DNA of 64,000 nucleotides from Lysobacteraceae bacterium (GTDB lineage: Bacteria; Bdellovibrionota; UBA1018; JAGTJX01). The notes under the pieces were generated by a model. That model was not told the origin of the DNA, ran no database searches, and worked only from the letters and a program-made list of their open reading frames with translations. Below are positions 53,871 through 57,835 of this stretch, piece after piece; position 1 is the stretch's first letter, and each line of letters begins with the position of its first letter. The position numbers were made by a program, and so were the translations under genes. The DNA is taken from positions 311,889 through 375,888 of the forward strand of contig JAGTJX010000003.1 in the NCBI GenBank assembly GCA_023657465.1, read 5' to 3'.

Positions 53871-54116
53871 CTATGTCTTTAGATTTACTTGGAATTCTGT
53901 AAGCCTTTCTATTTTCTCAGCCGCGTCATAAACCTCCTTGCGGAAGTCTTCAAGGATATAGCTAATCCCAAGCATTGTTTCTATGGGGTCTACAGGGGTC
54001 TCTTGAAAATACCCCTGACACTCTACAAACCAGGCCACTCCTGAGAGCTTTCGACTTAATCGGTACAAATCTGTGTAGACGGCCTCTACAGCAACTTTAT
54101 TAGAGCTATTTATCAT
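53871..54116 (-). CDS. hypothetical protein
   Basis: 81 aa with no motif; located in the tRNA-adjacent islet. Confidence 0.35.
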   Translation of the reverse strand: MINSSNKVAVEAVYTDLYRLSRKLSGVAWFVECQGYFQETPVDPIETMLGISYILEDFRKEVYDAAEKIERLTEFQVNLKT

Positions 54117-54184
54117 TGACCCTCCCTGAATACATATGATCGTGCTTACACATCATCATGCTTATTTGCAACGATTGTTTTATG

Positions 54185-54415
54185 GCAACAACTCTCAGCA
54201 ACGATGATTTAAGATTTCTTAAGAAGCTAGGATTGAGAATCCGTTCCTTACGAAATGAAAAAGGCTGGACGCTTGAGGATGTTGAGTCGCATGGCTGGAA
54301 CGGCTGGCAGCATCTTCAAAAAATTGAATCTGGAAAAAACATCACTGTTGTGACGCTTCGTAAAGTTGCGAAGCTATACAGGATCACAATCTCTCAACTT
54401 CTTGAGGGATGTTAG
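54185..54415 (+). CDS. XRE-family HTH transcriptional regulator
   Basis: LRIRSLRNEKGWTLEDVESH...LQKIESGKNITVVTLRKVAKLYRITISQLLEG. Confidence 0.7.
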   Translation, partial: ATTLSNDDLRFLKKLGLRIRSLRNEKGWTLEDVESHGWNGWQHLQKIESGKNITVVTLRKVAKLYRITISQLLEGC

Positions 54416-54536: not shown

Positions 54537-56999
54537 TTAGGTAAACGCGAACTGATCCTCACAGCCTTGCGCCTTACAAACAGGTTTATTGAGCGAGTCT
54601 GGCCGCTTGAACCGCTTTCCTTTACAAGATGTACATGCAAATTTTTCACGAAATTCCTTGAAATTTCTCCAACGGATCTTCTCATCTCCAACCGATCCCC
54701 AACTATTCGGATCAGATTGAAAGTGACTTCCAAAATTTTCGATTAGTCCTCTTTGTAAGGAGAGGAGAAATGGATTTTGGTGACCTGGAACTGTAGGTGG
54801 AAAGAGGCTTCGATTTTCTAGAAACGTGTGTAAAGCCAAAGCAAGCTCATGGCGCTGATGTGAATGCTCCTTGCCGATTTCCCTAATACGAATACTTACG
54901 CCAAAATCTCGACCGATCTTATTTAACCATTCTTCTTCAGCCTGTCTCATCAAGTTGGCAGCAGACTGCTCTAATCGGTGTAATTCTTCAATCTCATGGT
55001 CGAGAACTTGGTGGTCAGAGTAGCGTGGTCCGAAGGTCTTATCGAGTCGGGAAATCCTTTTAAATCTCCATTGAGTAGGTGTTAACTGATCTTCAAGAAA
55101 GCGATAGAACTGTTCGTCGTGAGTCAAAATAAAAACCTGAAAGCCTGATAGGTGTGTCGCAATAACGTCAACAACAGCTTTTCGTCGATCAGCATCGTAT
55201 GAGGTAACAACATCATCTAGAACAATAATTGGGAATCCTTTATTAAACATGCAGATTGAGGCAAGTCTGATTGCCAATGCAAGCGTATGAACTTGTGAGT
55301 CACTCAGATATCCGGCTGGTGGAACACTTTTTCTACCTTCAGCGAAATCAATGAGTAAATCTAGTTGGTGCTGAATTTTTTTATCACCAGGCGGAAACGA
55401 CAAATGAATTACTGGAACACCTTCGACACCAGTTTGGATTTCGTTGTAGAAGAAATTTATTTTGTCTGTCAAGGTCGAGATCAGAGTTTCGACATAGGAT
55501 TTAACTGAGGTGTCGACTATCGACGCATATTTTACTACAGCATCATGAATTTTTTGAACTTCCGACTTTCGACGTACTTCATAGTCAGCGCGCTCTTTGA
55601 GACCCGTTAACTTCTCTAGTGCATCATGCCCCGATTTCCATGTCGGCTTTCCTACCTCCTGCGGCTTCGGAATGGCAGGAGATAAATGTTCGAGTAACGT
55701 CTGAAGAGTCGTCTGCGCCAAATCAAATTTGATCGGGCTTCCAGAATAGGTGTATTTATCGCAAGCCGTCGCTGCTTCCTGAATAGGCTGAAGATCGATT
55801 GAAGATGATGTCTGTTTTAGTAAGTCCAAGATCGAGTTTAGGCAATCTTTCACTTCGCGTATCTTGGTCTCAACAACCATCTTTGACGCTTTCAATGCTT
55901 TCTCGGTGTCATAGTAGGTGGTCAAATGCTTCAGACTATTTTCCAAAGTAACTTTGATCCCATCAACTGATTTCGATGGTGTCTGGGTAATAGGCGTCTC
56001 GCAGACCGGACAATTATCTAATTGGATAGTAGGACTTTTAAAAAGTAGTTCAGCTTCGCGCCAAACATCAGCAAAGATAGCTTTTTCACTTTGGTTTTTT
56101 GTTTCAGAAAATAGTTCTTGGGCCTTCTTGTAGGATTCAATCGCAGTGTTACAGGTCGAAAAAGTGGCAACAGTAAGTGCCACTTTTTCGACCTTATTCC
56201 CAAGAGTTTGCTTGATCTTGTCGGTAATAGTTTTGTTAAGTACAGAGCTTTCATTTGATAATGCTTCAGCAGCACGATCGAATAGAACTTTCTTGATTCC
56301 CGCACACGAATCAAGAGCATCCACCTTAAGTACATTGTCGAGTGGAGTCAGTATAGTGTCGTTAAACCAAGCTACGCACCGAACTTCGTTCCACTGTTGC
56401 TCTTGACTGTTAGTGAGCCGTTTGACTTCACCGTTAATAGTGTCGAGCTGAGTCTGGTCATTGAGTGCACGATTGAGCTGTACACGCAGTTCACGAAGTG
56501 AATCTTGCGTCTTGAGAAGAGGATTGAAACCAAACCAGTTTGAAACCGCTTCGTACCTATCTGATGGACTCGTTGCCTCAACAAACTTCCTAAGCTCAAA
56601 CCCACGAATGATGTACGGAACCTTCATCGCTTCAAGTGCGGTAGCAAGATCGTCTGGAATCACTTCAGGAGTTTTAGCAGAGCGACTGAAAGGCTGTACC
56701 TGTGCCGCCCCAATAAACTCAACTTTAACAAAAGGACTAATATTCGCCTTGGTCGCAGCATGATGTACAAGTGCCTCTTTACCGGCCTGAGTTCCAGAGC
56801 GGACTTTACCAAGCCGCTCGACAAAGCCATCTTTGGAAAAAACAAATTCCATGGCGTCCACCAAACTGGATTTACCTTTTCCGTTGGGAGCCACTACAAC
56901 AAGTGATGACCCATTCTTTCCGAAGTCGATGGGCTGTTCCGAGAGGTAGGCACGAAAACCGGAGAGCGTGAGCTTTTTAAGCCTTGGAGGTATTGTCAT
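54537..56999 (-). CDS. SMC/Rad50(SbcC)-like ABC ATPase with central CPxC zinc hook and novel Cys-rich C-terminal extension
   Basis: N-terminal Walker A VVVAPNGKGKSSLVDAMEF and a long helical middle with DNCPVCETP. The C-terminal Walker B/D-loop is IIVLDDVVTSYDADRR, followed by FILTHDEQF. The extra ~170 aa end in CTSCKGKRF...CKAQGCEDQ. There is a strong SD GGAGG before the ATG. Confidence 0.7.
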   Translation of the reverse strand: MTIPPRLKKLTLSGFRAYLSEQPIDFGKNGSSLVVVAPNGKGKSSLVDAMEFVFSKDGFVERLGKVRSGTQAGKEALVHHAATKANISPFVKVEFIGAAQVQPFSRSAKTPEVIPDDLATALEAMKVPYIIRGFELRKFVEATSPSDRYEAVSNWFGFNPLLKTQDSLRELRVQLNRALNDQTQLDTINGEVKRLTNSQEQQWNEVRCVAWFNDTILTPLDNVLKVDALDSCAGIKKVLFDRAAEALSNESSVLNKTITDKIKQTLGNKVEKVALTVATFSTCNTAIESYKKAQELFSETKNQSEKAIFADVWREAELLFKSPTIQLDNCPVCETPITQTPSKSVDGIKVTLENSLKHLTTYYDTEKALKASKMVVETKIREVKDCLNSILDLLKQTSSSIDLQPIQEAATACDKYTYSGSPIKFDLAQTTLQTLLEHLSPAIPKPQEVGKPTWKSGHDALEKLTGLKERADYEVRRKSEVQKIHDAVVKYASIVDTSVKSYVETLISTLTDKINFFYNEIQTGVEGVPVIHLSFPPGDKKIQHQLDLLIDFAEGRKSVPPAGYLSDSQVHTLALAIRLASICMFNKGFPIIVLDDVVTSYDADRRKAVVDVIATHLSGFQVFILTHDEQFYRFLEDQLTPTQWRFKRISRLDKTFGPRYSDHQVLDHEIEELHRLEQSAANLMRQAEEEWLNKIGRDFGVSIRIREIGKEHSHQRHELALALHTFLENRSLFPPTVPGHQNPFLLSLQRGLIENFGSHFQSDPNSWGSVGDEKIRWRNFKEFREKFACTSCKGKRFKRPDSLNKPVCKAQGCEDQFAFT

Positions 57000-57237
57000 C
57001 TACCTCCTCCTTCTTTTCAGCCTGTGCTCTTGTCGCCGCGAGATCCATCAGGCGCTTCAACGCCTTTGTGATATTTTCTTTTTCGTCACCGTTTGGATTA
57101 AGGAGATCACTTTCGATGGTAGCCAACACTTCGACATCGCCGTCTTTAATTTCCTTTAAGGATTTTTTTAAATCCGAGTAAAGGACTTCTATGCTGAGTA
57201 TCTTGGAATCAGCCACATCTGTGTTTGTCGTCATCAA
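56977..57237 (-). CDS. small acidic protein, translationally coupled upstream partner of the ATPase
   Basis: 86 aa, net acidic (many D/E). Its stop overlaps the ATPase start by 23 nt. Confidence 0.4.
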   Translation of the reverse strand: MMTTNTDVADSKILSIEVLYSDLKKSLKEIKDGDVEVLATIESDLLNPNGDEKENITKALKRLMDLAATRAQAEKKEEVDDNTSKA

Positions 57238-57365: not shown

Positions 57366-57524
57366 CTAATAACGTGCTGATTTAGGTGAAGAGCTGTTCT
57401 TCATCGACCTCACAAACTCCTTTTTCGCAAACTCGCGGAGCTTTCCATACTGTCCAAGTGCAATCGACAACACGATCACTGCAATCAACCCGTTAATCAA
57501 ATCCCTTAAATCAAATGCCTTCAT
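57366..57524 (-). CDS. small (52 aa) single-TM membrane protein
   Basis: Not in the ORF track (<60 aa). Found by eye as MKAFDLRDLINGLIAVIVLSIALGQYGKL..., with SD AGGGAG upstream of the ATG. Confidence 0.35.
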   Translation of the reverse strand: MKAFDLRDLINGLIAVIVLSIALGQYGKLREFAKKEFVRSMKNSSSPKSARY

Positions 57525-57748: not shown

Positions 57749-57835
57749 TGGTGGCTCCGAAGAGAATCGAACTCTTACACCCTTGCGAATACCAGATTTT
57801 GAGTCTGGCGCGTCTACCAATTCCGCCACAGAGCC
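57749..57835 (-). tRNA. tRNA-Leu (anticodon CAA)
   Basis: 87-nt cloverleaf GGCTCTG-TG-GCGG-AATTGGTAGAC-GCGC... with anticodon loop CTCAAAA. It has a long variable arm, T-loop TTCGATT, acceptor 3' strand CGGAGCC, discriminator A, and an encoded CCA. The D-arm is nearly identical to E. coli tRNA-Leu. Confidence 0.9.

Follow-up and report, generated by a model that had tools for sequence, protein, structure and literature searches.

Evaluating positions 54,537 to 57,237 of a 64,000-nucleotide stretch of bacterial DNA (positions 311,889 to 375,888 of contig JAGTJX010000003.1, assembly GCA_023657465.1; hereafter the window), we found two overlapping genes on the minus strand that encode an 820-aa ATPase and a small acidic partner protein. 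We interpret this pair as a self-contained, horizontally mobile two-gene module of abortive infection or defence, belonging to an unnamed family and built as an RloC-like sensor-RNase, and we put the probability of this reading at about 0.55. Read from its motifs, the pair is probably an RloC-like ABC-HEPN variant with an obligatory acidic partner, which would act as a DNA-sensing abortive-infection RNase. The family is rejected as RloC in the strict sense, and we regard it as a good, testable candidate defence system.

The large protein has a head of Rad50/SMC type. A reading of the DNA made from its letters only (the sequence-only reading) had described an 820-aa bipartite ATP-binding cassette (ABC) ATPase with a CPVC zinc hook in mid-coil, and both descriptions hold: the open reading frame (ORF) and all head motifs were confirmed and are conserved (Table 1). 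Across an alignment of 82 diverse full-length family members, from which all motif conservation reported here derives, the Walker A residues N39, G42, K43 and S44 are kept in 99–100% of sequences (K43 in 99%), S566, D595, D596 and D602 in 100%, the hook cysteines C330 and C333 in 82 of 82 and P331 in 80 of 82 (98%). The AlphaFold model of the 820-aa protein (15 homologues as input; mean pLDDT, the model's confidence score, 81) has a bipartite head, a hairpin tipped by CPVC, a mostly helical tail from residue ~665 and short strands at its end. Long helices flank residue 330 on both sides in this model, such that the hook is the loop between helices 310–321 and 345–395 and sits at the apex of the helical hairpin between the head lobes. 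Profile and structure searches agree on the class of the head. Pfam returned SMC_N (1e-16) plus AAA_23, with Rad50_zn_hook matching weakly in one relative; HMMER aligned the signature/Walker B stretch to the Rad50 C-lobe of PDB entries; a PDB profile search gave matches confined to Rad50 and SMC head domains; and PHROGs gave only a generic SbcC-like head match. Foldseek with the full model ranked C. thermophilum Rad50 (7zr1) best, followed by SMC heads, and also found Lamassu LmuB (9uxh, 9uxh_F).

A Rad50/SMC-like head with a CPVC hook would suit a housekeeping ATPase of repair or chromosome maintenance (SbcC/Rad50, RecN or RecF type), and the sequence-only reading had itself named a clean placement in SbcC or RecN, with a conserved chromosomal context, as a result that would count against it. 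What we found makes the housekeeping explanation effectively refuted. The NCBIfam SbcC, Rad50, RecF and SMC models score far under their cutoffs (sbcc 19.4 versus 478.5; Rad50 PRK03918 27.6 versus 700), and the family shows no fixed context, being spread patchily across phyla in ~0.07% of species genomes with variable neighbours. The lack of a Mre11/SbcD partner, claimed from the letters alone, was upheld: a phmmer search with a single SbcD-like query, of limited sensitivity, found no such ORF in the 64-kb window, and a SbcD-like gene lies nearby, 2.6 kb away, in only 4 of ~90 relatives. The extra HEPN-like tail and the obligatory partner also speak against a housekeeping role.

The tail is one point at which the family departs from that class. 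Two motifs within it (Table 1) are near-invariant across the 82 members, with R685 kept in 98%, E689 in 96% and N682 in 78% for the first, and N755 in 98%, S758 in 87% and H759 in 99% for the second; what had been called a C-terminal extension is therefore an integral, strongly constrained part of the protein. The zinc-ribbon cysteines C789, C792, C808 and C813 are kept in 98–100% of members. Their last pair had been read as CxxxC, which needed correction, the spacing being Cx4C here (C808-KAQG-C813) and Cx2C in most relatives. The ribbon region is modelled as short beta strands, a Foldseek search of the C-domain against PDB gave weak zinc-ribbon matches only, and the tail as a whole is basic (pI 9.2).

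Both tail motifs have counterparts in RloC. That protein was defined by an ABC ATPase, a coiled coil with CxxC zinc hook, and a C-terminal Arg-X3-Glu-X36-52-His triad in which Ser often precedes His (PMC2610378); all three triad residues are essential, with Arg and Glu being members of the catalytic triad (PMC2610378), and the nuclease domain was later assigned to HEPN (PMC3710099). As reference we took the 746-aa RloC of Shewanella sp. ANA-3 plasmid 1 (NC_008573; Table S1 of PMC2610378), which lies at L101:15255-17495 on the minus strand of the plasmid record, and for alignment we collected 119 RloC orthologues, several of them named "wobble nucleotide-excising tRNase" by JGI. Comparing the two alignments (82 versus 119 sequences), hhalign placed both tail motifs in register with RloC, such that Q-N648-x-M-R651-x3-E655-x-Y-F of RloC meets A-N682-x-[MI]-R685-x3-E689-x-W-L here, and W-x-N690-x-G-S693-H694 (N690-D-G-S693-H694) meets [IV]-x-N755-x-G-S758-H759. 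At full length the alignment is colinear from the signature through Walker B and the H-loop to the R-x3-E helix (probability 61%, E 8e-5), and the landmarks K44, C291, D572, R692, E696 and H737 of G. kaustophilus RloC stand at nearly the same positions as K43, C330, D595, R685, E689 and H759 here. Judging from these motifs, the tail is probably a HEPN-like domain with a catalytic constellation of RloC/PrrC type, and a remote homologue of theirs.

The Shewanella orthologue itself adjoins a type I restriction-modification (R-M) system on a plasmid that also holds Qat, Abi and AbiEii genes, and its hook reads C-P-F-C.

A number of results weigh against the reading of the pair as an RloC-like defence module. 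With the C-domain alone, hhalign gave E ~0.03, about 2 standard deviations over column-shuffled controls and with the best shuffle equal, which does not establish statistically that the C-domain is homologous to RloC/PrrC. Glu and His are spaced by 69 residues (R685-X3-E689-X68-S758-H759), compared with 36–52 in RloC and 38 in the Shewanella orthologue. Pfam AAA_13 (PF13166) reaches 21.2 bits versus a cutoff of 36, over profile positions 528–583 of 713 around Walker B, and ten distant relatives likewise miss the threshold. On this test, in which the literature-listed Shewanella orthologue served as positive control (3.9e-178, 595 bits, positions 1–713), membership of RloC proper was rejected. 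The canonical Arg of the HEPN motif Rx4-6H is missing, position 754 being Glu in 51 of 82 members and Arg in 2, and searches of Pfam, PADLOC and PDB with the C-domain gave nothing past the Walker B region. Searches of Pfam, PADLOC, NCBIfam, PHROGs and PDB matched nothing to the partner, which has no detectable relatives of known function. At the locus itself, no att-like direct repeat of the tRNA 3' end and no shift in GC content or skew was found, and the pair is flanked in the window by housekeeping genes, with no integrase.

The missing Arg is also the starting point for a different explanation of the tail, in which the C-terminal domain would be a non-catalytic HEPN-like module for nucleic-acid binding or regulation, the pair a sensor only, and another protein the killer. 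Some HEPN domains that lack the motif are indeed non-catalytic (PMC3710099), and one candidate killer is the product of a variable third gene found right beside the ATPase gene in a subset of relatives. Directly 3' of the ATPase stop we found a DUF3223 (HamC-like) gene at 13 loci and a ~870-aa HD-CE+HATPase gene at 7, and a ~780-aa Mrr+nSTAND3 protein (PDC-S73) adjoins the pair, downstream or upstream, at 14; these recurrent third genes may be accessory effectors or mere defence-island neighbours. We nevertheless consider a non-catalytic tail improbable, as about two thirds of loci, this window included, are without recurrent third genes, and the third genes are recognisable stand-alone defence genes. 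R685, E689, N755, S758 and H759 are moreover kept at 87–99% across deep divergence and coincide with residues of RloC/PrrC proven essential by mutagenesis. Tested against Rx4-6H, the tail keeps H759 and a polar N755, and the Arg that it does conserve, R685, sits on the long helix before them, matching the arrangement of the RloC/PrrC triad.

Examples of the third genes are found at L001:10482-11192, L044:8485-9243, L086:8429-11122 and L074:4575-7025.

The small gene is as constant a feature of the family as the tail. Running a partner profile on the six-frame ORFs of 99 ATPase loci, we found it immediately upstream and on the same strand in 97, the remaining two being contigs that end at the ATPase start, and the pair is therefore an obligate two-gene operon. 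The coupling of the two genes, proposed earlier from their 23-nt overlap here, is thus borne out across the family: in the 97 loci the end of the small ORF coincides with the ATPase start or lies shortly beyond it, apart from two with a 3–7 nt gap, and in relatives with inspected gene calls the overlap is 1–26 nt. On intact contigs each match to the partner profile is followed by an 810–817-aa SMC_N protein. A strong Shine-Dalgarno-like sequence, AAGGAGGAGG, lies at 57003-57012 within the partner ORF, 3 nt 5' of the ATPase ATG (56999). The partner's own ATG comes one codon after its TTG, and the NCBI annotation is the 85-aa version. The 86-aa form has a net charge of -6 and a pI of 4.6, and acidity is a family trait (median net charge -7 and median pI 4.5 over 90 distinct homologues); the alignment shows a common core of ~55 aa with D34, L66 and R70 invariant. 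A PDB profile search with the partner gave noise only (designed helical proteins; RelB/VapB peptides at E ~0.5).

In some loci the ORF holding the partner core is far longer, at 190–290 aa with an extra N-terminal region; these are L005:2887-3708 and L006:3103-3708 (Mesorhizobium sp. B1-1-7) as well as L029, L064, L076 and L094. Such ORFs could be real fusions, or their calls may run too far in DNA of high GC content.

A small acidic upstream gene that overlaps a larger HEPN-like gene is the layout of a type II toxin-antitoxin (TA) system, and members of the family occur on plasmids and beside transposases and integrases. The pair might accordingly be an addiction module that stabilises plasmids or islands, with the acidic protein as labile antitoxin and the large protein as toxin. 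We think this very unlikely, since an 820-aa toxin with a conserved DNA-sensing ATPase and hook is over-elaborate for addiction and the partner shows no DNA-binding antitoxin domain; the roles in addiction and in abortive infection are, in any case, compatible.

Closer to our interpretation is the possibility of a reduced or fused Lamassu system, in which the ATPase would be LmuB, the small gene of LmuC type, and the effector LmuA replaced by the fused C-terminal domain, which the sensing of DNA ends would release or activate as in Lamassu. LmuB is Rad50-like with a zinc hook; its companions are LmuC, a small "middle component" whose gene lies immediately upstream, and the effector LmuA, a separate protein (bioRxiv 10.1101/2025.03.14.643221). 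LmuB senses DNA ends and releases the effector. The strongest match of any profile to the ATPase is indeed PADLOC LmuB PDLC03859 (3.3e-29, aa 139–637, coiled coil included), followed among LmuB models by PDLC03865 (5.8e-23) and a third (4e-12), Foldseek recovers LmuB as said, and the order of small gene then ATPase gene equals that of Lamassu. The earlier statement that the domain combination matches none of the known defence systems was thus too strong, both for this match and for the overall architecture, which is that of RloC. Yet the fold search ranks Rad50 higher than LmuB, the window lacks an LmuA-like gene and ~90 relatives show none that is conserved, the partner has no LmuC/MC match in Pfam or PADLOC, and no fusion of an effector to LmuB was found described in the Lamassu literature surveyed. 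We therefore rate descent by fusion from Lamassu as unlikely, while noting that it overlaps the RloC-like sensor-RNase reading and differs from it in ancestry and in making the partner a hook adaptor instead of a tail inhibitor.

The distribution of the family fits a mobile module. A word-indexed search gave only 16 full-length relatives (815–836 aa), whereas a HMMER search of 1.84 billion cluster representatives with a profile of the C-terminal 185 residues gave 313 proteins at E<=1e-3, or a family of ~300 clusters at 50% identity. Among the best 150 of these 313, the C-domain always occupies about residues 630–820 of 800–840-aa proteins; shorter matches look like metagenomic fragments. Scanning 185,579 species genomes, one per species, revealed at least 121 relatives (~0.07%), a lower bound, as the scan depended on sequence patterns. 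Their hosts include Alpha-, Beta- and Gammaproteobacteria, Chloroflexota, Planctomycetota, Acidobacteriota, Nitrospirota, Actinobacteria, Gemmatimonadota and one Nitrosopumilaceae archaeon, and the pair occurs also on rhizobial symbiosis plasmids, with five Bradyrhizobium plasmids carrying it.

The gene-neighbourhood comparison that the sequence-only reading had proposed revealed that the small gene is kept and the other flanks vary by locus. These flanks are rich in integrases, transposases, AbiEi/AbiEii, methyltransferases, SocA/Panacea and TIR-NACHT genes, with Mrr+nSTAND3 (PADLOC PDC-S73), DUF3223 (PADLOC HamC) and HD-CE+HATPase as further frequent neighbours, and clustering of the flanking ORFs of ~90 relatives gave no universally conserved third gene. 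The patchy spread, together with integrase, AbiE, Mrr-nSTAND3, HamC-like and plasmid contexts, makes a defence-type role plausible. To this extent the earlier proposal of a defence module stands, on grounds other than its own: it had argued from an adjacent tRNA gene and XRE regulator, both of which are present here but are specific to this genome, as XRE genes are absent beside the relatives' pairs and a tRNA gene lies within 6 kb in 3 of 60 loci. Adjacency to a tRNA gene was accordingly rejected as a family trait. Also rejected as parts of the module, being absent beside the pair in relatives, were the XRE gene, the 81-aa and 52-aa ORFs and a lipocalin-like gene.

One Caldilineaceae locus (L085:4485-5277) carries, ~0.5 kb upstream of the partner, a row of tRNA genes for six amino acids (Leu, Ala, Gly, Phe, Gln, His). 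An array of this kind beside a candidate tRNA-cleaving effector might be more than coincidence, though it is a single case.

Starting from what was observed, namely the architecture, the motif conservation, the obligate pairing of the genes, their patchy distribution and their mobile or defence-type neighbourhoods, we propose the following course of events by which the pair might work as an RloC-like sensor-RNase. The large protein is most likely a homodimer, by analogy with Rad50, LmuB and RloC, with its coiled coils joined via the CPVC zinc hook, and its ABC heads, as in those three proteins, would engage on ATP and sense DNA ends or aberrant or foreign DNA. A rearrangement that depends on ATP and DNA would follow and set free the two HEPN-like domains at the C-termini or bring them together, and in these domains R685, E689, N755, S758 and H759 would make up a metal-independent RNase site, if their identity with the RloC/PrrC motifs reflects shared function. 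Cleavage of RNA, with tRNA anticodon loops as the prime candidate on the same grounds, or of other RNA, would shut down translation in the infected cell. The zinc ribbon at the end of the chain probably helps to bind nucleic acid or pairs the tails. The partner would be made in fixed ratio through the overlapping start and most likely serves as a silencer or adaptor in the manner of an antitoxin, shielding the basic tail of HEPN-like domain and zinc ribbon until the trigger arrives; alternatively, it may lock the folded coiled coil until then, as LmuC does. For comparison, the nuclease of G. kaustophilus RloC stays inactive unless both ATP and linear DNA are supplied, and hook mutations derepress it (PMC3458546). 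A more specific version of our reading, namely a DNA sensor of Lamassu/Rad50 type joined in one chain with an anticodon nuclease of RloC/PrrC type and a zinc ribbon, checked by a dedicated ~70-aa acidic protein and forming an undescribed defence family, we advance tentatively and at somewhat less than even odds.

Table 1. Features of the ATPase–partner locus and its surroundings, in window positions.
Feature	Position	Strand	Basis or remark
ATPase gene, 820 aa	54537..56999	minus	ORF call; Rad50/LmuB-like ABC ATPase, zinc-hook coiled coil, HEPN-like domain, zinc ribbon
Small acidic partner gene	56977..57237	minus	86 aa from TTG 57237, 85 aa from ATG 57234
Gene junction	56977..57012	minus	23-nt overlap of both ORFs, read off sequence
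Walker A / P-loop, A37-PNGKGKS-S45	56865..56891	minus	sequence; inside Pfam SMC_N and AAA_23 matches
Antiparallel coiled-coil insert, about aa 160–525	55425..56522	minus	AlphaFold model, Foldseek
Zinc hook, C330-P-V-C333	56001..56012	minus	conservation, model
ABC signature LSDSQ (aa 565–569), Walker B IIVLDD (591–596), D-loop to D602	55194..55307	minus	sequence
H-loop, T626-H627	55119..55124	minus	both residues 96% conserved
HEPN-like helical domain, about aa 665–787 (putative RNase effector)	54639..55007	minus	
Motif N682-x2-R685-x3-E689, first long helix of the domain	54933..54956	minus	conservation, hhalign
Motif N755-F-G-S758-H759, putative catalytic His	54723..54737	minus	conservation
Four-Cys zinc ribbon, C789-x2-C792 ... 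C808-x4-C813	54561..54635	minus	conservation, model
tRNA-Leu(CAA)	57749-57835		
XRE-type helix-turn-helix gene	54158-54415	plus	Pfam; convergent with ATPase gene
81-aa ORF without family match	53871-54116	minus	divergent from XRE gene

Around the pair, the window holds the neighbours listed in Table 1. The XRE gene is convergent with the ATPase gene, not divergent from it; together with the 81-aa ORF it may form a separate small regulator or TA-like pair that spans 53871-54415. Between the pair and the tRNA gene, a 52-aa ORF (57366-57524) matches no family, is without a counterpart in relatives and may not be a real gene. A scan of the locus for promoters and terminators gave nothing exceeding chance. 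The source is a metagenome-assembled genome labelled "Xanthomonadaceae bacterium" by NCBI (locus tag KA715_09420, on a 982-kb contig); a GC content of only 40–50% in the region and several sigma-54-type regulators are unusual for Xanthomonadaceae, and the taxonomic label may be wrong.

Within the ATPase ORF, a perfect 17-nt inverted repeat with an 8-nt loop stands at 56153-56194 (aa ~269–283) and maps to a low-confidence loop of the coiled coil in the model. As RNA it has a folding energy of -29 kcal/mol (z = -7.8 versus shuffles). We rejected it as a family feature, since relatives show no comparable hairpin at that position, and among 98 other genes only one (L028) has any hairpin, at another place in the gene. 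It is an oddity that its host gene encodes a protein of the Rad50/SbcC-like class, whose known substrates include palindromes and hairpins.

Seeing that control of a C-terminal HEPN RNase by an ABC ATPase has precedents in PrrC, RloC and other ABC-HEPN fusions, we do not regard the proposed mechanism as categorically new. What would be new is the combination, in which a sensor of LmuB/Rad50 type meets an effector resembling that of RloC, a zinc ribbon and a small acidic partner that is obligatory. Pfam, NCBIfam and PADLOC v2 have no profile of tail, partner or pair, and no description of such a pair was found in the literature covered, which did not extend to the ABC-ATPase classification of Krishnan et al. 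2020, where a prior mention is possible. Under their current annotation ("AAA family ATPase" and "hypothetical protein") the two genes would be missed by defence-system finders or logged as an orphan LmuB-like match. If our interpretation is right, the family would be an evolutionary and mechanistic bridge between SMC-like DNA sensing (Rad50, Lamassu) and ABC-HEPN tRNA cleavage (RloC, PrrC), with an external protein silencer where that of RloC is internal. If active, it would be a compact two-gene addition to the SMC-like immune sensors and would join two separate literatures, one on DNA-end sensing by Rad50 and Lamassu and one on translation shut-off by RloC and PrrC. Having sensor and effector in one chain, plus a protein of ~70–100 aa, would also make for a tractable system in which to follow how the state of head and hook is passed to a nuclease, and how a tiny acidic protein can silence it.

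Setting the family beside the systems it resembles, we find Rad50-Mre11/SbcCD nearest in fold. The bipartite ABC head, the antiparallel coiled coil and the CPVC hook are shared, and Rad50 is the top structural match, whereas the coiled coil here is much shorter, a conserved Mre11/SbcD partner is lacking, the HEPN-like tail and zinc ribbon are extra, and the gene is rare and mobile instead of universal. Its NCBIfam scores fall far below the cutoffs. Lamassu (LmuA-LmuC-LmuB; DdmABC, ABC-3C) is nearest in profile: its LmuB model is the best match to ATPase and coiled coil, and both systems have a zinc hook, a small gene directly upstream of the ATPase gene, in the position of lmuC, and a distribution of defence-island type. 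Unlike Lamassu, the present family has no LmuA effector gene in the window or conserved in ~90 relatives, its candidate effector domain is fused to the C-terminus of the ATPase, its tail of ~180 aa extends beyond the ABC head and outside the best LmuB profile (611 positions), and its partner matches neither LmuC nor MC (MC1–MC8) in Pfam or PADLOC at E<1.

With PrrC and other ABC-HEPN fusions the family shares the principle of an N-terminal ABC NTPase that controls a C-terminal HEPN RNase in conflict systems (PMC3710099); two such fusions, APECO1_4465 and ERFG_01251 (Anantharaman et al. 2013, PMC3710099), were compared with it by description only. PrrC has neither coiled coil nor hook, and a type I R-M enzyme linked to it keeps it silent, whereas silencing here, if any, would pass through a dedicated small protein. 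RloC (Pfam PF13166 AAA_13, COG4694) is nearest in overall design, both being single chains of ~700–890 aa with a hook-split ABC head and a C-terminal helical nuclease domain (putative here), both mobile and sporadic in distribution, with ABC motifs (Walker A, signature, Walker B/D-loop, switch His) 96–100% conserved here and with N-x2-R-x3-E-x-[WY]-[LF] followed by N-x-G-S-H in the same order and the landmarks at nearly the same positions. The two differ in the hook, which is Rad50-like CP[VLI]C here and C-x-F-C in RloC, in ~30 more residues between Glu and His here, in the four-Cys zinc ribbon, of which RloC has none, and in the obligatory upstream acidic partner, in contrast to RloC, which according to published accounts moves without a companion gene and carries its silencer within.

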